Assembly (NCBI GenBank): GCA_046290225.1
Contig: JBKAGE010000021.1
Span: forward strand, 1 to 13,187
Direction: 5' to 3'
DNA length: 13,187 nt
DNA from: Bradymonadia bacterium
GTDB lineage: Bacteria; Myxococcota_A; Bradymonadia; UBA7976; UBA1532
The position numbers and the translations under genes were made by a program. Of this stretch, positions 1,659 through 13,187 are shown piece by piece. Each line of letters opens with the position of its first letter. The first letter of the stretch is position 1. The notes under the pieces were generated by a model. That model did not search any database, was not told the DNA's origin, and saw only the letters and a list, made by a program, of their open reading frames with translations.

Positions 1659-4097
1659 TCAGAGTGGGAAGAGTGAAGGCTGACTGGGTTTTGGGGCTGG
1701 ATATGGCTCCGCCATCTGTGATGGTGCCGTGTGAAGGAGCCGTCCTGCAAGGGCCCGACCGGAGCACCATGCGTGCTCCAGACCTGCAAAGGGATCTGTG
1801 GTTCCATGACACCAGTCACCACAAGCACCCAACTGCTGTTGCTCATCGTAGAGGTACTTGAGACCCGTCGAGTTGAGCTGAGCCGAAAACGCAAACCGCC
1901 AACGATGAGCGTTTGAGAACAGAATACGCTTCGGATCGAGTTGAGCGAGTGTGCAGAAGTCATCGAGCAGATTCTCGGCGATCCACATCTTGTCTGCCTC
2001 AAGGTGAGCTCTCGACCAGTCTCCATGTGCTTGCACAACCCACCCAGAAGATGAGACGCGCCCTGGTCGTGCTTGCTCCATACATGCCCAGGCAATGCTC
2101 GGGTGATTCTCGAGGAGGTACCAGGATGTCTCGGGCACATCTGCACACTCGAGGCTAAACATCAGAGTCCAGCAAGGCTCCATTTCGATCTGGGCTGCAG
2201 CTGCTGACAAATGTGGTGAGGTACTGAGGAGCGGAGCGGCCTGTGGCGCAGGGGTGGCCACCAATACCCAATCAAATGTCTCCTTCGAGATGGGCAAGCC
2301 ATCCATATCCAAAAGGCGCCAGCTGTGACCTGTACGGTCGATGGAGGCCACACGTGTGCCGAAGTCGACGTCGAGCCCTTGAGCCATGTGCTTGATGATG
2401 GCGTTCATACCGGGTACCCCCACCCACGCAGTATGGCCCAGGTGAGCTGATAGCTCGGGCCACTCTCTGACATGACCCTGCTGCGCCCATGCACGGATGT
2501 GACGCTGGAGTTGGGGATCCCGTGCTGTCAGAGCGCGCGCGCTATGATCGAAACGCTGATCGCCATGGCGTCGAGTCGAGGATCTGCCCCCAGGGCCCCG
2601 CCCTTTGTCGAACAGCTTCACTTGCCAACCATGACGTGTGAGGGTCTGGCCACAAGAAAGCCCTGCCATGCCGGCACCGATGATGGCCACCCGTGGCGTG
2701 GGCTGCCATGGGCATTGTCGTGTCAGCGTGTTGTAGGCATCGACATCGAGGTAGGAGCGATGGCGATCCAGAGATCTGAGCCGGGTCTTTCCGATGATGG
2801 GCTGTGCCGGGGTGAAGGGCCGATCAAAGAGGCCAAAGCACCAGAGAATACTGCACAGCGACACAGGATCTCGGCCATCAAGGGCGAACCGGTCGTTGAG
2901 ATCAAGAGCGAGGCTCAGAGCGTCCTGCGGTGTGCGCGCCCATTGCTGGAGGGCCTTACACCACGTCATTCTGACATTGTTATGAAGCTCGCCGTGCTGG
3001 AGAAGGCTACGTTGGGCTGCATCCCAGAGAGCATCTCCAGAGCGGGCGAGGGCAAGACGCTCCCAGTCGAGATGTGCAGGGCGGGGATCTTCGAGGTGAG
3101 CACTCCACGTCTCTTGAGCCCAAGCAGGCAAAGCGTTCAACGTCGCCATTTCATCTGAGAGTGTGTGGAAACACCAGTGCCAGGCGAGCTCTCTCCAGAC
3201 CAGCAGCTGGCGACACCATGCCTCTCCTGAGGTGCCCGCACGTGTTGCGTGGCGCGCCAGTCGAAAGGGAGACACATGGCCATAGTGCAAGTAGGCCGAC
3301 ATCCGGCTGCTGGGCTCGAGCGGGTTGTTTCGGTGGCGCTTGTATGTCGACAGCCGTGACGCTCGGAAGTGTTCCCAGCGTGAATAGCCAGCGGCAGAGC
3401 CACCCTTTGTATGAGGGACCGGGCCGACGCCGTGATCGATCTCGCATGTGCTGATCAGAGCGTCGAGATGTGTCTCGTCGAGGTTTACAGGCGTGAAGGA
3501 GAGCTCAGTTGGGGCATGCATCGCCCGGTGGGGGGTGAGCGTGCGCCATGTGTGGCTCAGCGTGGCGTGGCGAGGTTGCTCAGTGGCGATCTCGAAGGCG
3601 AAGGCCCGAGTGTATGCCTTCGAGGTGCTGGACATGGGCACAGCGCAGCTGGCGTCCACCGTCCACAGTGGGCAACTCCTCGAAACCGCGAGCGCCCAAC
3701 GGTGATGGTGGAGCAACGGAAACTCGTCTGTGACGACGAGGCTGGCCCGTGATGCGAGATCTTTGAGGGCCTGGCCCCGGTGACCGGGCCGGCTCAGATG
3801 AAAGAGGTAGGGGATGCCCTTCTCGGCGAGGCCACGGGCCACGTCCTGGGCGCCCTCGAGGATGAAGCGGTGATGCCGATCGCTGGCGTAGGGGTAGCGC
3901 TCGTCGAGGCCATGATAGACCCAGAGATCCCGGTCGAGTTGAGCGGCAACCTCCAAAGCGAGCTCGAGCGCAGGGTTCTCATGATCTCGTACGGCCACCC
4001 TCATCCAGTAGACTACGGGTCCAGGCCGCTCAGGATCGAAGTGTGCACCCAGCCGGTGGCAGATACGCTCCTGGAGGTGAACTGGCAATGTATCCAT
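1659..4097 (-). CDS. Class II CPD deoxyribodipyrimidine photolyase fused to a C-terminal renalase-like FAD/NAD(P)-dependent oxidoreductase (812 aa)
   Basis: aa ~1-465: PVVYWMR..R...NPAL, SRMSAYLHYGHVS, LHNNVRMTWCK, LNDRFALDGRDP, FGLFDRPF (class II photolyase). aa ~469-790: RVAIIGAGMAG, DKGRGPGGRSSTRR, ATPAPQAAPLL, HRWRFA, GACGDW (renalase family). One uninterrupted frame. Confidence 0.92.
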   Translation of the reverse strand: MDTLPVHLQERICHRLGAHFDPERPGPVVYWMRVAVRDHENPALELALEVAAQLDRDLWVYHGLDERYPYASDRHHRFILEGAQDVARGLAEKGIPYLFHLSRPGHRGQALKDLASRASLVVTDEFPLLHHHRWALAVSRSCPLWTVDASCAVPMSSTSKAYTRAFAFEIATEQPRHATLSHTWRTLTPHRAMHAPTELSFTPVNLDETHLDALISTCEIDHGVGPVPHTKGGSAAGYSRWEHFRASRLSTYKRHRNNPLEPSSRMSAYLHYGHVSPFRLARHATRAGTSGEAWCRQLLVWRELAWHWCFHTLSDEMATLNALPAWAQETWSAHLEDPRPAHLDWERLALARSGDALWDAAQRSLLQHGELHNNVRMTWCKALQQWARTPQDALSLALDLNDRFALDGRDPVSLCSILWCFGLFDRPFTPAQPIIGKTRLRSLDRHRSYLDVDAYNTLTRQCPWQPTPRVAIIGAGMAGLSCGQTLTRHGWQVKLFDKGRGPGGRSSTRRHGDQRFDHSARALTARDPQLQRHIRAWAQQGHVREWPELSAHLGHTAWVGVPGMNAIIKHMAQGLDVDFGTRVASIDRTGHSWRLLDMDGLPISKETFDWVLVATPAPQAAPLLSTSPHLSAAAAQIEMEPCWTLMFSLECADVPETSWYLLENHPSIAWACMEQARPGRVSSSGWVVQAHGDWSRAHLEADKMWIAENLLDDFCTLAQLDPKRILFSNAHRWRFAFSAQLNSTGLKYLYDEQQQLGACGDWCHGTTDPFAGLEHAWCSGRALAGRLLHTAPSQMAEPYPAPKPSQPSLFPL

Positions 4098-4103
4098 GCT
4101 TGA

Positions 4104-4607
4104 TCACCAGCCCCATGAGCCTGGACCCCCCTTGAAGGGGCCCACGAGGTTCTGGGTGATCCATCCACCATAGAAGTCACCCGGTTGGGGGGTCACTGAC
4201 TCTCCATTCACCCGGCAATCACCCACACGCCCTGCATAAAAGGCGAGGTGGTGGGCGATCTGGTCGAAGCCCGTCACAGGCACTGGGTAGGCCCAAGCCA
4301 CTGTATGTCCGCGCTGCCCGCTCGAGCTCTCCACATCGAAGTAGATGGCCTGGCCTTTCCACTCACAGTGGGTCGTGGCGGGCTGCCGCTTCAGAAGGTG
4401 CATGCGTACGTCTTCGGGAGGGAAGTAGTAAACTGGAGGGTGGGTCGTCTCCAGCACGCGATGGCCTCGTGTCGTCCTGGCCAGCAGCTCACCATCGAAG
4501 AACACCTCGAGTGTTGCGTTGACCGCCTCAAGGCGAGGAGGGCGGGGGTAGTCCCAGACCCACTCCTGTCCTGGTTTCAGCGCAGGGCGACGGTTGGGGC
4601 GTTGCAC
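4104..4607 (-). CDS. DUF427 domain protein
   Basis: [46 protein letters not shown] and GPFKG motifs. GTG start with upstream AGGAG; 6 nt gap to the photolyase gene. Confidence 0.9.
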
Positions 4608-4669
4608 AGTGCTCTCCTGTTCACGAGGTGTTGAGAGAGATAGACGACGGCCACTTCGGTTGCCTCACC

Positions 4670-4681
4670 TGTCAAGTGACA
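4670..4681. promoter_or_regulatory. Palindrome TGTCA-AG-TGACA in the divergent intergenic region, candidate operator
   Basis: Perfect 5-bp inverted repeat with a 2-nt spacer. Its left part reads TTGACA on the minus strand, toward the photolyase operon, but no matching -10 is visible. Confidence 0.3.
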
Positions 4682-4725
4682 TAACCAGTGCGCCGAATAT
4701 CAAGTGTCTGGGCAGAGAGCAGAGA

Positions 4726-6744
4726 GTGAGGCGCCTCTTGAAGATCTCGACACGCATCGCGCTGGGATTCGCCGTTTTATCGACCCTTGTGTTGTTGAAC
4801 GGCATCGCCGGCTGGCAAGGGCTTGAGCATGCACAGGAGCAGGTGGGGGAGCTTGCTGCCATCAACGAAAAGAGTGAGCAAGCTGCTCAGATCAGAACGC
4901 ATCTCTTGAGGGTTCAGGGCGACATCAGTGAGTTTCGGCGCACTGGCTCTCCAGAGATCTTGAAGAAGATCACTGATCAGCTTGGCTCGGTGAAAAAAGA
5001 GCTCGGTGAGAGCATGGCCCGGTTCGAAGGGGAGGCGCGTCAGGCCTTCACAGAGCTGGAGGCGTTGATCCTCAAATATGGGCAAGCCTTCGAGGAGGCG
5101 GCCCAATATGACCAGACCGCACGAAAGCTCATCGTCGGGACGATGGCGCCTGCAGGTGAGCGGATCAACGAGCACCTGAGCAATATGCTGGAAGAGGCGG
5201 GCAAGGCAGATGAGCGATTTGCCATCGACACGGTGAGCCGAGGGTTCGAGCAGACGCTCACAGGTCGACTGAACGTTGCTCAGTACATCCTGAACCAGGA
5301 TGAAGATACCTTCGACGATGCTCAGAGCGGTTTCAACCTGGCGGTGCTCTCACTGGGCGCTCTGTCGAGGACGAGCCCGCAGCCCAAGGTGAAGGCCCTG
5401 GCCACCAAGGCCGTGGAAGACATCGAGGTGTATCGCGAGGCTCTGGCAGATGTGGAAGAGGCCCTGGTCGAGCGCAACACAGTGATGACGGAGCAGCTCG
5501 AGCCTGCAGGCAAGCAGATCATGACTTCAGTCGAGACTGTGACTCAGCGGCTGGCGGGTGAGCGGGAGTCGGTCATTGCGACCTCGAGTGAGGCGACGGC
5601 GGGTGCTCAGAACACAGGGCTGACTTTGCTGCTGTTGAGCTGTGTGGTGGCGTTCGCCGCAGCATGGATGTTGAGCCGGTCGGTGACTGTGCCGGTGAAG
5701 GCGTTGAACTCGGCCATGGCAGAGCTGGCAGAAGGACACCTTGAGGTAGGCGTGCCCGGGTTGAGGCGCCGAGACGCCCTCGGGCAGATGGCCAACACGG
5801 TCCTGGTCTTCAGAGATCATGCTCGAGAAGTAGAGCGGCTTCGGGCCTCTCAGGTCGAGGCTGAGGCGCGCGCCGAGGCCGAGCGTTCTGCGTCACTTCG
5901 GCAGATCGCCGAGGAGCTGGAAAGCAGCCTGATGGGTGTGGTCTCCGAAGTGGAGGGTGCTGTGAGCCAGGTGGGCGAGAATGCTCAACAGATGGACACT
6001 CAGGCCCGGGAGACCATCAGCCAGTCCGAGCAGGTGGCCCGGACGTCGGCTCAGGCTGCAAGAAACGTCGACGGTGTCTCCGAGGCTGCGCGCTCGCTCT
6101 CTGCGCAGATCGCGGACATCTCCGATTCGCTCAGCAAGGCTGCCGAGGGGGTGAGTACCGCCTCTGATCGCGCCGAGCAGGCGACGGATATCATGGATCG
6201 CCTCAACGACGCGGCTCAGGAAGTGGGCTCGGTGGTTCAGTTGATCAAGGACATCTCCGACAACACCGGGCTGTTGGCTTTGAACGCCACCATCGAGGCT
6301 GCCCGGGCGGGGGAGCTCGGGAAGGGGTTCGCGGTGGTCGCAGATGAGGTCAAGAACCTCGCCACCCAGACGGGCCGGGCCACCACCAACATCAGCGCCC
6401 TGGTGGAAATGATCCAGACCACGACACAGGAGGCTGTGCAGGCCATCGCTGCGGTGAGCCACGATGTCAGTGCGGTGCAGCAGAGCACCCACAGCATCGC
6501 TCAGGCTGTGGAGGCGCAGCATGGTGCCACGCGGACCATCTCGGCGCACATCGAGGAGATCAGCAACGGCTCCCGGGTGGTGGTGGAGCGCATGTCTCAA
6601 GTCGATCAGGCCGCACAGAGTACTCAAAGCGGCTCTCAAGAGGTGGTTCAGGCCGTGTCTCAGTTGCATGGCTCGACACAGCGACTCACGGCGCAGGTGG
6701 GCGCCTTTGCTGCTCAGATCAAAGCGCAGAGCAGCCGCACCTGA
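4726..6744 (+). CDS. Methyl-accepting chemotaxis protein (TM1, large helical periplasmic sensor, TM2, HAMP, signalling domain)
   Basis: TM1 [22 protein letters not shown]2 [43 protein letters not shown]; hairpin tip [34 protein letters not shown]. Start placed at GTG 4726 (TTG 4738 is an alternative) because 4594 overlaps the divergent gene. Confidence 0.95.
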
Positions 6745-6777
6745 GGCGGGTGCCTTGCCAAAGGCCCTGGCCTCAGG
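6740..6777 (+). other. Stable intergenic stem-loop without a U-tract
   Basis: CCTGAGGC pairs with GCCTCAGG; inner GCCTT-GCCA-AAGGC. Confidence 0.6.
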
Positions 6778-6789
6778 CATCACAGGGGG

Positions 6790-7479
6790 GTGAGCACCTA
6801 CACCCCACTGATCATTCTCTTCGACATCGATGGCACCCTGGTGAGTACAGGTGGCGCTGGTCGCCGGGCCATGGCCTCTGCGCTGAAGGACTACCTCGGT
6901 CAACCAGGCGCCTTGGGCTTTCACTTCGCCGGGATGACCGATCGAGCGATCCTCCGCCGCGCCATTGAAGGCGTCGGCGCCACCTATGACGAGCGTGCCC
7001 ACGACGCAGTGGTGGAGATCTACCTCGAACACTTGAAGGTCGAGCTGCCCCAGTCGACGAACTATCGGGTGATGCCGGGGGTAGCAGACTTCATCGAGGC
7101 CTGCCTGGCGTTGCCCGATGCTGTGTCGGGCCTCGGCACAGGGAACATCGAGCCTGCGGCACGCCTCAAGCTCGCGCCTGCAGGGCTGGATCGTTACTTC
7201 GAGTTTGGTGGCTTCGGCGATGACGCCGAGATCCGCAGCGACATGCTGATCGCTGGTGCACGCCGTGGCGCTGCACAGCTGGGTCTCGAGCTGTCGAGCT
7301 GTGAGGTGATCGTCATCGGGGACACTGTCCGAGACATTCATGCTGCGCGGGCTATGGGTGCCCGATGCATTGCGGTGTGCACGGGGGGAGACGCTCGGAC
7401 TGATCTCGAAGCAGAGCAGCCGTGGCGCGTTGTGGAAGATCTCACCGAGCCCGGTCTCGTCGATCGTCTACGGAGCTGA
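6790..7479 (+). CDS. HAD-superfamily hydrolase (phosphoglycolate-phosphatase-like)
   Basis: Motif I LFDIDGTL, motif II GLGTGN, motif IV VIGDTVRDI, plus FAGMTD and GGFGDD. Confidence 0.93.
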   Translation: MSTYTPLIILFDIDGTLVSTGGAGRRAMASALKDYLGQPGALGFHFAGMTDRAILRRAIEGVGATYDERAHDAVVEIYLEHLKVELPQSTNYRVMPGVADFIEACLALPDAVSGLGTGNIEPAARLKLAPAGLDRYFEFGGFGDDAEIRSDMLIAGARRGAAQLGLELSSCEVIVIGDTVRDIHAARAMGARCIAVCTGGDARTDLEAEQPWRVVEDLTEPGLVDRLRS

Positions 7480-7483
7480 GCCA

Positions 7484-8302
7484 ATGTGCGTCATTGGCAT
7501 TGCCATGCACGTGCATCCTCAGTGGCCCGTGATCATCGCTGCCAACCGTGACGAGTTTCTACAGCGGCCGACTTCGGGTCCTCAGCAACTCGGCGTGGAT
7601 GCACAGGGTCATGCATTCTTCGGAGGCCGCGATCTGGAGAAGGGCGGCACCTGGATGGGGGTAGGCGCCGGAGGTTTCTTCGTCGGCCTGACCAATCAAC
7701 GCCTTGGAGGTGGTGCCGGCTCTCCAGCGCCTCGCTCCCGAGGGGAGGTGGTGCTCGAAGCCCTGCGCCTGGCGTCGGTGGTCGAGATCAACGCCTGGCT
7801 CTCGACCTTGCCCACGGCGGACTACCTGCCCTTCAACTTGATGTATGGTACCGCTGAGGCCATGTGGGTGGCGTACGTGCGCCCTGACGCTGCGCCCCAG
7901 GTCGAGCAGGTGCCTTCAGGCATACATGCGTTGCCCAACGACGTGCTCGACAGCCCGAGGTTTCCCCGAGCTGCGAGGGTGGTGGCGGGTATGGGCGGGG
8001 CCCTCGACGGCCTCCCATCTGATGCATCATGGCCTGATGTGTCAGCATCGCTCACCACGCTCCTCGCGGATCGCACGCCCCCCAATGAGGATGAGCGGGC
8101 AGTGCTCGCTGCTCAGGGCGGTGAGCTCGATCTGTGGGTGGCGCTGGATCACATTCTGATTCGCACCCCTGTGTACGGCACCCGTTCGAGTACTCTGGTG
8201 GCCCTCTCCCCAGGCGCTGTGGCCGGGTATGGGTTCGTGGACGGAGCCCCTGGAGATGCGCCTCTGGTGGATTACACCCACTGGCTTCGGGCAGGTGAGT
8301 AA
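7484..8302 (+). CDS. NRDE/TANGO2 (DUF833) family protein
   Basis: N-terminal MC, AANRDEF, GRDLEKGGTWMG, LTN, SRGEVV, YLPFNL, YGTRSST. Start at ATG 7484, 4 nt after the HAD stop. Confidence 0.94.
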   Translation: MCVIGIAMHVHPQWPVIIAANRDEFLQRPTSGPQQLGVDAQGHAFFGGRDLEKGGTWMGVGAGGFFVGLTNQRLGGGAGSPAPRSRGEVVLEALRLASVVEINAWLSTLPTADYLPFNLMYGTAEAMWVAYVRPDAAPQVEQVPSGIHALPNDVLDSPRFPRAARVVAGMGGALDGLPSDASWPDVSASLTTLLADRTPPNEDERAVLAAQGGELDLWVALDHILIRTPVYGTRSSTLVALSPGAVAGYGFVDGAPGDAPLVDYTHWLRAGE

Positions 8303-8324: not shown

Positions 8325-8342
8325 GTGTGACACATGTGTGAC
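8325..8342. promoter_or_regulatory. Direct repeat GTGTGAC-ACAT-GTGTGAC (11-bp period), candidate OmpR/PhoB-family box
   Basis: Exact 7-bp repeat with a 4-nt spacer; the minus strand reads GTCACAC-ATGT-GTCACAC. Lies in the intergenic region upstream of the nuclease operon. Confidence 0.4.
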
Positions 8343-8368
8343 GAACCCCGAGCGCTCCATCCAGTGGG

Positions 8369-8397
8369 TTGACTTGTTCGGGGGGTTACCTTTTATT
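8369..8397 (+). promoter_or_regulatory. Possible sigma70-type promoter for the nuclease operon
   Basis: TTGACT (8369-8374), 17-nt spacer, TTTATT (8392-8397). The -10 is weak. Confidence 0.35.
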
Positions 8398-8427: not shown

Positions 8428-9432
8428 ATGAGCTTCAGCCGCCCCAAGCCCTTCACTCGCTTCTCTGCATCGCAGGTGCTGAGCGCTGCCTGCTGTGGCG
8501 CTCTGCTGTGTCTTGCAGCCTTCTCCACGGCCCATGGCCGGGCGCAGAGCAAGGTGTTCCTGAACGGTGTGCCCCACCCAGTGCACTTCAACGATGGCGA
8601 CAGCTTTCAGGTGATCAGTGGCCAGTTCGCCGGCACGAAGGCCCGCCTCGCAGGGTTCAACACCCTGGAGAGCTTCGGCCCGGTGCACCGCTGGGGCAAG
8701 TGGACGGCGAAGGAGCTCTACAAGAACGCCAAGATGGCCACGATGAACGCCCGTAGGGGTGTGTGGCACTGCGAGTCGGATCTCAAGACTGACTTCTACG
8801 GCCGTATCTTGTGGTGGTGTGAAGATCTCGCTGTCGATCAGGTCCGCAAAGGCCTGGCCCACGCCATGAGCGTCACCGAGGAGGCGGCGAAGCCCGCGGT
8901 GGTTGCGGCGCAGCAAGAGGCCATCGCCAACCGGCGGGGCATGTGGGCCCACGGAGTGCCCGAGTTCGTGCTCACCTCGATCCACTCCAACGACGAGCGC
9001 CCTGGCGACAAGAAGTCGTACAACCGCCTCGTCTCCAGCAATGACGGCCACTCCCGCCGTTGGCAGCACGAGTTGCTCTATTCGGAGTGCGAAGAGGTCT
9101 GCTGGCAGCCCCCCGACGCCGATGAGCGCAAGCGCCTGATGTTCGACCGCCTGCGGCGTATGACCAAGGGGGCTGAAGAGGTGCTGAAGGCCTACGACGA
9201 CGATCGGCTGATCGCCCTGGTCAAGAAGTACAAAGAGACTGGCAAGCTGGGCCTGGTCGGGGCCGGTGGCCTCGCCGACGCAGCTCATCGGGAGACGCTC
9301 GAGCCCATCGTGAAGGACTGGGTGGAGCACGATTGGCTGAGGAACCTCGACACCGAGATCTCGAGCTGTATGACCTACGTGGATTTCCGGCGCCGCTTCG
9401 GTAGCAACCAGGCGAGCTGTTTGAGGAAGTGA
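8428..9432 (+). CDS. Secreted thermonuclease (staphylococcal nuclease/SNase) family protein with C-terminal extension (~334 aa)
   Basis: Signal peptide ending AFSTAHG; NDGDSF, RLAGFNTLE, DFYGRIL, QVRKGLA and AQQEAIANRRGMW match the SNase pattern. GGAGG RBS at 8418-8422 before ATG 8428. Confidence 0.85.
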   Translation: MSFSRPKPFTRFSASQVLSAACCGALLCLAAFSTAHGRAQSKVFLNGVPHPVHFNDGDSFQVISGQFAGTKARLAGFNTLESFGPVHRWGKWTAKELYKNAKMATMNARRGVWHCESDLKTDFYGRILWWCEDLAVDQVRKGLAHAMSVTEEAAKPAVVAAQQEAIANRRGMWAHGVPEFVLTSIHSNDERPGDKKSYNRLVSSNDGHSRRWQHELLYSECEEVCWQPPDADERKRLMFDRLRRMTKGAEEVLKAYDDDRLIALVKKYKETGKLGLVGAGGLADAAHRETLEPIVKDWVEHDWLRNLDTEISSCMTYVDFRRRFGSNQASCLRK

Positions 9433-11033
9433 TGCATCACCGTTTCAGTGCCCGTCGACGTCGCGTCTCTGCTTTGAGGCGCCCTCTCCTGATCGCTGGC
9501 GGGTTGCTGGCGGTGTGTACTCTGGGCCTCGCGAGCTGCGAGTTCAACCGACCCCTCACGGCCCCTGTAGGTTACGAATACACCGATCAAACCTGCAGTG
9601 ACGGTTTCGACAACGATGATGACGGTCTCATCGATTGCCGTGATCCAGAGTGTCTGGGGAACTCGACGCTTTGTGGCCCCACTGTGCCGCCCAACCTCCA
9701 GTTCGAGGTGGAGAACACCATCGAGCTGTGCCAGGACAGCGCGGACAACGACGATGACGGCAACTTCGATTGCGGTGATCGCAAGTGCCAGGCGATCCCG
9801 GAGAACTGCTGCGGCAGCGAGGTGACCAACGCCAAGTGCTCCGACGGCATCGACAACGACGGCAATGGCTTCACTGACTGTGCCGACTTCTCCTGCCGTC
9901 GTGGTGCCTTCGTCACGGTCTGCCCGAACCCGGAGCCTGAGGCTGGGGAGCGGCAGTGCAGCGATCAGCTCGACAATGACGGGGATGGCCTCCGCGATTG
10001 CGCAGACGATGGCTGCGCCGAGTTCTGCAACACGCCCGAGGCGGGTGATGCAGCCTGCTCCGACGGGGCAGACAATGACGGTGACGGTGATGCCGATTGT
10101 GCAGACTCCGGGTGCGCTCAGGCCTCGAACTGCCGTGAGAGTGACTGCGGCGACGGCATCGACAACGACAACAACGGCGTCGCCGATTGCCAGGATCGTG
10201 GGTGTATCGGGATCGCGCCTTGCACTGAGCCAGAGACCACCCTGCAAGCATGTCAGGATGGCGTCGACAACGATGGCAATGGCTTCATCGACTGTGGCGA
10301 CTTCAGCTGCAGCCGAGCGGAAAATGGTGCCAGCGCTGAGTCCGTGACGTACTGCGCTTCGCTCTCGGAGATGAGCCTGCAGGCATGCCAGGACGGCGTC
10401 GACAACGACAACAACGGCTTCACTGATTGTGAGGACTTCAGCTGCAGTCGCAGTGAGGATCCCGATGTCGCGGGTTACTGCGCATCGTTGTCGGAGACCG
10501 GTCTCGCCAAATGCCAGAATGGCATCGACGATGACGGCAATGGCTTCATCGATTGCGCCGACTTTAGCTGCAGCCGCAGCGAAGATCAGGATGTGCTCGA
10601 CTATTGCGCGTCGTTGTCGGAGTCAGGGCTGGAGAAGTGCAGCAACGGCATCGACGATGATGAAAACGGGTTCGTCGACTGCGGCGACTTCAGCTGCAGC
10701 CGCAGTGATGATCCGGCGGTGATCGCCTACTGTGCCGATGTGCTCGAAGAGAGCGTAGAAAAGTGCAGCAACGGCATCGATGACGACGGCAATGGCTTTG
10801 CCGATTGTGATGACTTCAGCTGCAACCGCTCGACCACCATCGACAATGGGGTGATCGTCAAGAGCGTGTGCTTCGAGACGTTCTTGGAGCTGAGCCCTCA
10901 AGAGGCCAACGCCGCCTGCTCCGACGGCATCGACAGTGACGGTGATGGCTTCACCGATTGTGACGACTACGACTGCAGCGTTGATCCTCGAGTCACGGTG
11001 TGCGCCGGCCGGCGCATCTGTGGCCTGGACTGA
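9429..11033 (+). CDS. Cys/Asp-rich repeat lipoprotein, putative Ca2+-binding (534 aa)
   Basis: Arg-rich n-region, hydrophobic h-region and lipobox LAS-C. Twelve copies of C-x-[DN]-x-x-D-[NDS]-D-x-[DN]-G-x-x-D-C-x-D-x-x-C. Start (GTG 9429 or ATG 9432) overlaps the nuclease stop in GTGATG. Confidence 0.88.
   Translation: MMHHRFSARRRRVSALRRPLLIAGGLLAVCTLGLASCEFNRPLTAPVGYEYTDQTCSDGFDNDDDGLIDCRDPECLGNSTLCGPTVPPNLQFEVENTIELCQDSADNDDDGNFDCGDRKCQAIPENCCGSEVTNAKCSDGIDNDGNGFTDCADFSCRRGAFVTVCPNPEPEAGERQCSDQLDNDGDGLRDCADDGCAEFCNTPEAGDAACSDGADNDGDGDADCADSGCAQASNCRESDCGDGIDNDNNGVADCQDRGCIGIAPCTEPETTLQACQDGVDNDGNGFIDCGDFSCSRAENGASAESVTYCASLSEMSLQACQDGVDNDNNGFTDCEDFSCSRSEDPDVAGYCASLSETGLAKCQNGIDDDGNGFIDCADFSCSRSEDQDVLDYCASLSESGLEKCSNGIDDDENGFVDCGDFSCSRSDDPAVIAYCADVLEESVEKCSNGIDDDGNGFADCDDFSCNRSTTIDNGVIVKSVCFETFLELSPQEANAACSDGIDSDGDGFTDCDDYDCSVDPRVTVCAGRRICGLD
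10251..10823 (+). repeat. Intragenic tandem repeat: five units, one 135-bp spacing then three 126-bp spacings
   Basis: Units start at 10251, 10386, 10512, 10638 and 10764 and share GACTT(C/T)AGCTGCA and C[QS][DN]G[VI]D.D.NGF.DC.DFSC.R. Confidence 0.9.
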
Positions 11034-11076
11034 TGCACCTCCATCTCGCCTTCACCTACGATTTTCGAGGATGAAC

Positions 11077-12690
11077 ATGGCCCTCCGCTTTGCACCTCTC
11101 GGCTCCAAGCTCGTGCTCGGCGCTGCTTGCTTGTTGGCGCTGCACGCGCTGACTTTCTCTACGGTGGCGAGCGCTCAGAACGCCCCCGGCGCGAAAGAGA
11201 CGCAGTGCGACAACGGCGTCGACGACGACAATGATTCGTTGCCCGACTGCGCCGACAGCGACTGCACCGATACGCCGGCCTGTGCCCCTGACGGCAACCC
11301 CGAGAGCACGGATCAGCGTTGCTCTGATTGGGTGGACAACGATCAGGATGGCGCTACGGACTGTGACGACAGCGATTGTCAGGCCTCGTTCATCTCCGTG
11401 TGCTCCGGATCCTGGTCAGGCTCCACTGGTGGGGAGACCAAGGCCAAGCCGAAGGACAACACCGACATCCGTCCTGATCTGCCGGGCCTCGCCGACGGCG
11501 TCTCTGCCTACGAGCTGATCGGGAAGGGTGGTGACATCGACGGTGAGCGCAACGACTACCTCTGCTCGGACGGCATCGACAACGACGGCGACGGCCGCAT
11601 TGACTGTGCAGATTACGGCTGTCGCTTCGACGACAGCGTCCGCGTGTGTCAGGGGGCCCCGGGCCTGCGCTTCTCGGTGGTGGCCATGGCGGAGCAGAGC
11701 TTCGACATCGAGCAGAACCGCCAGAACGGCGATCTGGACGATGCACAGAAGATCACGCCCTGGGATACGCGCATCTCTCGCTTGCAGCTGCGTGCCCTGG
11801 GTCCGATCCCCCAGATTCAGAACTCGTTCTTCCTCGTGCAGGTGCTGGCAGAGCGTACGCCGCGCTTGTCCTTCGCGATGTTCTCGGTGCCTTTGGGCCG
11901 CAGCGGTCACTTCATGGCCATCAACAGCGGCGCCGCAGGCCTGTCGCAGATCGGCGCGGTCTCGGTACACAAGCAGCTGTTCCTCGATCGCACTGACCTG
12001 TTCCGGGCGATGGAGCAGTTCAACTCCTCGGCCATCGAGTTCACGGGTCCGCTGACGAGCAACGGCAAGCTGATGTACCGCACCTTCGCTGCCGGTGGCG
12101 CAGGCCGCTTCGACGGCAACGTGGGTGGCCGCTCGGTGAATGCCGAGGGGGCGAACTATTCCTGGGCTGGTGGCGGCGCGCTGACGATCAACCTGAAGGG
12201 TTACTACAGCCGCTTCGATACGCCGTTCCTCTACACTCCGGTGCCCCTCACGGCTGCAGCGATCATCGGTGCGAAGTACGACCAGCGTGACATGGAGCGC
12301 TACGCCTCGGTGAACGTGCACGTACCGATCCGATGGAACCGCCTGCTGCTCATCGGTGAGTACTACGGGAAGCAGGAGTTCGAGTTCGAGTCGACGCAGC
12401 ACTCATACCTGATTCAGGCAGGCTTCCTGGCGATCCCAAGGAAGCTGTTCCTGGCTGCGGACTTCGGTTCGTACCTCGCAGGCGACTACGGGAACCCCCC
12501 GGAGACGTTCACGGGCGAGCTGCGCAATCAACGGGACGAGACCGAGATCCGCGCTGCGGCTCACTATTACTTCTTCCGCAACATCGGCGTGATGTCGCTG
12601 GTCTACCGCAACCGTGATGTGAAGTCTGGCAACGGCCGAGAGGGCTTCAAGGAAGAGCTCCTCCGCCTGGTGGCTCAATTTAGATTCTAG
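11077..12690 (+). CDS. Outer-membrane beta-barrel (porin-like) protein with N-terminal Cys/Asp-rich repeats
   Basis: Sec signal ending ASA-Q. Three repeats of the same motif as the upstream lipoprotein (11206-11622). Then ~340 aa of amphipathic beta-strands ending in the BAM-type beta-signal LRLVAQFRF. GAGG at 11067-11070; start is ATG 11077 or 11071. Confidence 0.82.
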   Translation: MALRFAPLGSKLVLGAACLLALHALTFSTVASAQNAPGAKETQCDNGVDDDNDSLPDCADSDCTDTPACAPDGNPESTDQRCSDWVDNDQDGATDCDDSDCQASFISVCSGSWSGSTGGETKAKPKDNTDIRPDLPGLADGVSAYELIGKGGDIDGERNDYLCSDGIDNDGDGRIDCADYGCRFDDSVRVCQGAPGLRFSVVAMAEQSFDIEQNRQNGDLDDAQKITPWDTRISRLQLRALGPIPQIQNSFFLVQVLAERTPRLSFAMFSVPLGRSGHFMAINSGAAGLSQIGAVSVHKQLFLDRTDLFRAMEQFNSSAIEFTGPLTSNGKLMYRTFAAGGAGRFDGNVGGRSVNAEGANYSWAGGGALTINLKGYYSRFDTPFLYTPVPLTAAAIIGAKYDQRDMERYASVNVHVPIRWNRLLLIGEYYGKQEFEFESTQHSYLIQAGFLAIPRKLFLAADFGSYLAGDYGNPPETFTGELRNQRDETEIRAAAHYYFFRNIGVMSLVYRNRDVKSGNGREGFKEELLRLVAQFRF

Positions 12691-12692
12691 CT

Positions 12693-12728
12693 CCGGCGCT
12701 GCGGCGGCGTCAGCCGCCGTGACGCCGG
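12693..12728 (+). terminator. GC-rich hairpin directly after the barrel gene (terminator or 3' stabiliser, no U-tract)
   Basis: CCGGCG-CT-GCGGCGGC-GTCA-GCCGCCGT-GA-CGCCGG. Confidence 0.55.
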
Positions 12729-12880
12729 CGATCTCCCGCCCAGCTACGACCTTTCCGTCCTCGACGTAGCGCAGCTACCTCTGCGGGTGAAAGCCCGCAT
12801 CTGGACGAGACCTCACCAACCTCACGACGACTGCCGCCGCGACCCGCCTACCCTACTAGGGCTCGTGCATCCCTGGATTA

Positions 12881-13082
12881 TGGCTTTGTAGGGCTCTTTG
12901 GAGCCATTGGCTTCTGGCTACGCTGCTCTATTTTTCACGACGTCTGCGTGAAGGCCCGTGAATCCCACAATGACAACAGTCTGACTGCAGCCAGCTTCGC
13001 GCTTCCGCGGGGCACATACACACCACTTCTCTGATATTTGCGGTGGCTTTGTAGAGCCCTGGCTGCTGTAGCCAGTGGCTCT
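12881..13082. repeat. Imperfect direct repeat pair, each copy containing the palindrome AGCCA-N-TGGCT
   Basis: 12881 TGGCTTTGTAGGGCTCT..GGAGCCATTGGCT and 13044 TGGCTTTGTAGAGCCCT..GTAGCCAGTGGCT, 163 bp apart. Confidence 0.65.
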
Positions 13083-13163
13083 GATCGCCCTACACATTTT
13101 GGTTGGTATCGTTGAGCCTAATTGGCGAATGCGAGTACTGGTGCCAAAGAGGTGTAGGGTTTG

Positions 13164-13187
13164 ATGAGTAAAGACAAGGGATTACCA
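13164..13187 (+). CDS. Probable start of a truncated ORF (MSKDKGLP...), product unknown
   Basis: ATG open to the window end with GAGGTG at 13149-13154. Only 8 codons are visible. Confidence 0.35.

Follow-up and report, generated by a model that had tools for sequence, protein, structure and literature searches.

We describe a three-gene module that encodes an exported nuclease-like protein, a lipoprotein built of Cys/Asp repeats, and a predicted outer-membrane barrel, and that keeps one gene order across its phylum. It was found at positions 8,428 to 12,690 of contig JBKAGE010000021.1 from a Bradymonadia bacterium (assembly GCA_046290225.1). The window analysed here is this entire contig (C21; 13,187 nucleotides), and the source genome has 8.58 Mb and is 99% complete. 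We tentatively read the trio as a periplasm-facing port for nucleic-acid salvage, which we regard as possible rather than probable.

A conserved three-gene module

We sampled 401 genomes of the phylum, from 254 genera. Of these, 60 contained the barrel domain and 95 the nuclease, with a gap in the nuclease E-values between 1.1e-69 and 6.2e-52. The cut-off for the nuclease clade was placed within this gap after the gap had been seen, and the 60 genomes above it are exactly the 60 carrying the barrel. In 56 of them, nuclease and barrel lie on the same contig and strand, 2.5-4.0 kb apart, and the repeat gene sits between them in all 56 intact loci; the other four loci are interrupted by contig ends at or inside the lipoprotein gene. 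The trio is a real conserved module with the order nuclease-lipoprotein-barrel, and the preliminary description of this DNA, which had proposed the three genes as one system, is borne out on this point by their neighbourhood.

The 60 genomes cover 17 families and 38 of the 254 genera (about 15% of the sampled genomes). Since 28 of them come from one family (f16), these counts are not independent. Named homologues come from Myxococcota (Bradymonadia, Polyangiaceae, Sandaracinaceae, and Nannocystaceae), and all named carriers seen are metagenome-assembled genomes. In a quick tree, a branch with SH-aLRT 100 split the trio nucleases (62, two of them added to the 60 by a search for relatives) from 20 sequences fetched out of 53 weaker hits, and the tree groups largely tracked families. 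Within about 6 kb of the 20 stand-alone nuclease loci, neither repeats nor a barrel were found.

As first described, the three genes are co-oriented and all carry export signals: a signal peptide, a lipobox (LAS-C), and a signal peptide plus C-terminal Phe. The stop/start overlap of the first two also held: the GTG/ATG of the lipoprotein gene overlaps the nuclease TGA. The barrel gene follows after 37 or 43 nt, depending on its start; the start at 11077 has a GAGGA and matches a 537-aa database record.

Two side observations concern related loci. The lipoprotein gene of L034 (2792-4670, - strand) is split over two frames with 6 and 4 repeats, a frameshift or an assembly error. The stand-alone nucleases (L079-L098) form a clade of the same Asn-40 family; 7/20 adjoin genes that by eye resemble an Mla-type ABC cluster, and a few genomes hold tandem copies.

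The barrel resembles OprO and OprP

Judged from its model, the barrel is a divergent OprO/OprP-like porin and not SusC. The model (predicted local distance difference test, pLDDT, 87) has 16 strands, no plug, and an inward long loop between strands 5 and 6. VIA-align puts OprO and OprP on top with a lead of about 2 Z units, their alignments being longer but less tight. When the profile was compared with five Porin_O_P members of these genomes, 206 columns from L3 on were aligned (a remote match, E 2.6e-6), and the embedding match in the ESM Atlas agrees with such a barrel. The comparison with OprO/OprP that the preliminary description had proposed thus came out in favour of this family. The trio barrel shares with these phosphate-selective porins the strand number, the L3 motif, the best structural and embedding match, and an N-terminal extension. 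It differs in its 7-9% identity, in three Cys/Asp repeats on the N-terminal arm, and in being always accompanied by the nuclease and the lipoprotein.

Porins of this class have their N- and C-termini in the periplasm. The periplasmic side would therefore carry the three repeats as well as the conserved turns (PIPxIQNS, GxxSRFDSPFLYTP, RNIG), with the variable loops facing outward. The barrels keep about 50% identity phylum-wide. Predicted lumen positions are modestly net basic; the conserved lumen-side basic residues, assigned by strand alternation and not from coordinates, are R3, R40, R44, R140, K205, K237, R297, and R341.

The lipoprotein and its Cys/Asp repeat

The lipoprotein is highly acidic (118 D+E vs 30 K+R). 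The motif C-x-[DN]-x2-D-x-D-x-[DN]-x3-D-C-x-D-x2-C, already noticed as common to lipoprotein and barrel, was recovered 12 and three times, respectively, with no hits in 2000 shuffles of the lipoprotein. Both proteins exceed the cut-off (41) of NCBIfam NF033662: the lipoprotein with 326 bits over 12 stretches and the barrel with 96 bits over three.

The repeat matches the teneurin C-rich domain (PDB 7PLP), and its core Asp/Asn positions coincide with the teneurin Ca2+ ligands. In teneurin, these ligands comprise eight acidic residues and an Asn. The earlier idea of a Ca2+-type repeat is thus backed by homology to a solved domain, which binds three Ca2+ according to part of PMC9058538. Among 534 repeats, selected with a pattern in which the core Asp is obligatory, position +2 is D/N, +9 is N/D, and +16 is D in 527, with D at +18 in just 162 and D/E at -3 in 156. 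Repeats 1-2 of the barrel retain nearly all acidic ligands. We infer that the repeats bind Ca2+, probably fewer than three per repeat because other residues often take the place of the outer two acidic ligands. The trio repeats differ from the teneurin domain in forming tandem arrays instead of one copy, and those of the lipoprotein often lack the first and last acidic ligands. The trio supplies bacterial arrays of the teneurin Ca2+ module. The portion of PMC3278476 (2011) that we used names motif matches that are diatom, algal, or MopE-like and traces the teneurin module to a diatom or alga; that of PMC13018210, on bacterial teneurin-like proteins, gave no mention of C-rich homologues under the terms searched.

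A Cys follows the hydrophobic stretch in 57/57 full-length lipoproteins, which carry 7-18 repeats each. No copy has Lys at +2, and Ala stands at +7 in 9/57, the window's lipoprotein not among them; in the Myxococcus xanthus sorting terms given in part of PMC3222651, such a +2/+7 pattern points to the outer membrane. Mean identity is 0.56-0.63 for repeats 1-3, 0.59 for the last repeat, and 0.45-0.48 for repeats 4-5, a pattern that fits ends serving as putative docking parts around a variable spacer.

The nuclease

The nuclease barely passes the cut-off (21) of the Pfam staphylococcal nuclease (SNase) family PF00565, with 23.3 bits and E 9e-5. Its model (pLDDT 95) gave 50 listed Foldseek matches, each of them to staphylococcal nuclease (E about 4e-4 to 9e-4), and the predicted fold agrees with the SNase assignment made earlier. 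The equivalents of SNase D21, R35, E43, and R87 are invariant in 62/62 trio and 20/20 stand-alone members. In the trio's own numbering, D19, D21, R36, E44, D85, and R89 are invariant in 62/62. The D83/R87 register was observed, and the other equivalences rest on motif spacing. In our reading, the protein would act as a nuclease and likely depend on Ca2+.

Thus, the trio nuclease shares with SNase the fold and the equivalents of D19, D21, R35, E43, D83, and R87, and differs by an Asn at D40, invariant Cys, a C-terminal extension, and an optional insert. Six Cys are invariant in an alignment of 114 sequences. The helical insert is missing in 21/62 trio nucleases and is therefore dispensable. By eye, the 62 signals are of the cleavable type, with no lipobox.

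A possible salvage port and its alternatives

At the functional level, nucleotides and short oligonucleotides would enter through the porin, predicted to be OprO/OprP-like. Beneath the pore, its periplasmic arm, with predicted Ca2+ binding, would build a scaffold together with the repeat lipoprotein. The nuclease-like protein, which is likely Ca2+-dependent, would likely be kept at this place and cleave the fragments, whose phosphate and bases could then be reused. The topology of the barrel repeats and conserved turns fits such a periplasm-facing port better than a surface machine.

Several results weigh against the salvage port. Foldseek with the barrel returned general porins and OprP alike, general porins ranking first, and none of the 60 barrels reached the cut-off of Pfam Porin_O_P (PF07396) or another porin family. 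Unlike OprO/OprP, the trio barrels mostly lack an Arg in L3 at the position that we take to be R133 of OprP (present in just 7/60), so phosphate specificity is not supported by it. A porin of 16 strands is not expected to let duplex DNA through, and a periplasmic nuclease would then depend on upstream cutting. The preliminary description had noted that lipoprotein and barrel share the repeat. Four further proteins of the source genome also carry it as a generic module, so a shared repeat does not by itself show that lipoprotein and barrel are partners. Among the neighbours scanned, no nucleotidase, phosphatase, or inner-membrane nucleoside transporter travels with the trio. The expected links to phosphate limitation and nucleotide need were not supported either: nucleotide auxotrophy showed no link (purM not found in 8/40 trio genomes vs 4/40 others), nor did loss of purM or pyrB, the source genome has both genes, and no conserved Pho-box-like motif was found. 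Finally, the position of the SNase Ca2+ ligand D40 is Asn in 82/82 trio and stand-alone members, and D40E/G substitutions impair SNase according to part of 10.1101/2021.10.25.465661. Of two related canonical SNases that adjoin trio loci, one has Asp and the second Asn at this position, so the exchange occurs naturally.

The preliminary description had favoured a surface machine, which we consider somewhat unlikely. The nuclease would be exported past the outer membrane, possibly on a surface-exposed lipoprotein, and would digest extracellular or prey nucleic acid, with the porin importing nucleotides or phosphate. External cutting would suit a small pore better, and the same co-occurrence data apply. 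Moreover, myxobacteria export some lipoproteins (PMC3222651, in part), and Vibrio needs secreted nucleases to draw phosphate from extracellular DNA (PMC4714964, in part). However, topology places the repeats of the barrel and its conserved turns in the periplasm, the nuclease signal is cleavable, and the M. xanthus export signal –Ala at +7– is as rare among these lipoproteins as given above.

The Asn at D40 in all members also suits a narrower phosphodiesterase, or a binder of nucleotides or phosphate esters, in a module that would handle a small phosphorylated solute; alternatively, the module would handle Ca2+, with the repeats as a periplasmic store. The extra Cys-containing subdomain of the nuclease, the many repeats per lipoprotein, and the barrel conservation, which suggests a specific ligand, point the same way. 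We find this unlikely, as the two catalytic Arg, the Glu, and D21 never vary, the Asp/Asn exchange is natural in canonical SNases, and the predicted lumen is net basic instead of cation-favouring.

A role in DNA uptake, in which the module would admit or process single-stranded DNA for ComEC, for transformation or food, is suggested by the loci of f16. There, all genes are co-oriented in the order exbB-exbD-exbD-nuclease-lipoprotein-barrel-comEC (e.g. L023:3723-13005 and 27 other loci), with exbB in 27/28, the two exbD in 27/28 and 28/28, and comEC in 25/28; in the three loci without comEC, the contig ends right after the barrel. The arrangement may be one inherited event. It is confined to this family, and comEC was found beside no trio locus outside it. 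In the source genome, comEC and exbB lie on contigs other than the trio's, and one locus of another family (f49) has exbB-exbD-exbD one gene away. The exb neighbours may be unrelated, since one ExbB plus two ExbD also describes the AglRQS gliding motor, and the motor genes of f16 may be AglRQS-like. Despite a secreted thermonuclease being reportedly required for transformation in Methanococcus maripaludis (PMC10133366, in part), an uptake accessory is decidedly unlikely. A related idea, which we rate as very unlikely, is that the module serves single-stranded DNA or oligonucleotides as an outer-membrane gateway independent of pili: the porin, with a Ca2+-stiffened periplasmic cage, would pass strands to a docked nuclease and, in f16, would be driven by ExbB/ExbD and feed ComEC.

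Least probable of all is a weapon or barrier, with the nuclease as a predation or anti-DNA effector, the lipoprotein as DNA-mimic inhibitor or chaperone, and the barrel as part of a release route: a very acidic lipoprotein translationally coupled to the nuclease would fit, but the three genes are conserved, not polymorphic, with tree groups largely following families, the pore is probably too small for a folded 33-kDa protein, and stand-alone nuclease paralogues have no repeat gene nearby.

Comparison to known systems

SusCD pairs a 22-strand TonB-dependent, plugged barrel with a SusD lid. The trio shares its logic of barrel, lipoprotein, and hydrolase, and the analogy drawn earlier fails on structure: with 16 strands, no plug, and no SusD-like lid (no SusD hit in profile scans of the trio proteins), a SusC/D-type system was rejected.

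In Mycoplasma agalactiae MAG_5030-5070 and homologues, an exported SNase stands beside a lipoprotein and a transporter, with a proposed role in nucleotide-precursor supply (PMC3585158, in part). The trio pairs the same kinds of components. In those operons, the lipoprotein is the nuclease itself, and transport falls to an ABC system of the inner membrane, whereas the trio has a porin and a repeat-array lipoprotein, and no conserved ABC importer was seen beside trio loci in the neighbours scanned.

For each of the three parts, there is a known family to which it belongs or which it resembles. Nuclease, lipoprotein, and porin were not described as a combination in the literature searched, at the level of titles and abstract beginnings. 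The claim that this is not a named system thus stands for the combination and falls for the repeat, which already has a named family. How nucleic-acid breakdown products cross the outer membrane of Gram-negative predators and scavengers is poorly mapped, and the trio offers three defined proteins. If our reading is true, it exemplifies a hydrolase tied to a passive porin and not to a TonB-dependent transporter.

Locus features and neighbours

Table 1. Features of the window (positions in nucleotides).
Feature	Position	Strand	Description
Photolyase/oxidase fusion	1659-4097	-	812-aa open reading frame; DNA photolyase-like N-terminal part (PF00875, weak PF03441) and flavin amine-oxidase-like domain (PF01593, PF13450)
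Upstream genes	4594-8302	+	MCP, HAD hydrolase, TANGO2/NRDE; not kept beside the trio elsewhere
Direct repeat	8327-8344	-	GTCAC-N6-GTCAC, 11-bp; resembles OmpR/PhoB-family site; upstream of promoter candidate
Promoter candidate	8369-8397	+	Weak, sigma70-like, by eye; TTGACT (8369-8374)-17-TTTATT (8392-8397)
Nuclease gene	8428-9432	+	334 aa; GGAGG 5 nt 5' of ATG; exported SNase-fold protein; signal peptide ~37 aa, SNase core, Cys-containing C-terminal extension, optional helical insert
Nuclease core motifs	8590; 8644; 8791	+	NDGDS; RLAGFNTLE; DFYGR
Helical insert	about 9110-9360	+	~80 aa
Lipoprotein gene	9429/9432-11033	+	GTG/ATG start
Lipoprotein	9432-11033	+	Lipobox Cys at 9537; 12 acidic double-disulfide repeats between 9594 and 10976
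Barrel gene	11071 or 11077-12690	+	Protein ends ..AQFRF
Outer-membrane protein	11077-12690 (start 11071 or 11077)	+	Signal peptide, three repeats, predicted 16-strand porin-fold barrel, C-terminal Phe
N-terminal arm	11206-11622	+	Repeats 11206-11265, 11320-11379, 11563-11622; probably periplasmic by porin topology
Barrel domain	11662-12687	+	342 aa; long L3 between strands 5 and 6; Porin_O_P-like S..K....[DE] motif; conserved periplasmic turns
Hairpin	about 12695-12726	+	GC-rich; directly after barrel stop; no U-tract
Contig end	12730-13187		~450 nt past the hairpin, without an open reading frame of 80 aa

The promoter placed before the trio by the preliminary description proved weak: the scan of the window called none on the + strand, and the candidate in Table 1, in the 125-nt gap 3' of the TANGO2 gene, lacks the A of the -10. 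The hairpin after the trio is real (z = -3.06, 96 nt tested), although the scan did not call it as a terminator. The direct repeat upstream of the candidate is not conserved among relatives. The GC content at third codon positions is 0.85, 0.74, and 0.82 in the trio genes, and 0.60-0.74 in the other genes of the window.

Outside f16, no flanking gene was common across families, in the clustered loci or in 63 neighbours scanned with Pfam (15 + 48), a hand-picked part of those called. A second, canonical SNase gene lies just 3' of the barrel in three loci of two families (L047:11043-11450, L064:5473-5868, L060:5305-5724). Divergent from the trio, L022:3944-5492 (- strand) holds a second repeat protein and an endonuclease/exonuclease/phosphatase gene. 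The four other repeat proteins of the source genome (G000; C78:468603-470639, C80:97991-99295, C36:89123-90163, and C71:15114-17141) have 10, 4, 1, and 1 copies, respectively; they are apparently lipoproteins, and one is papain-type peptidase-like by eye.
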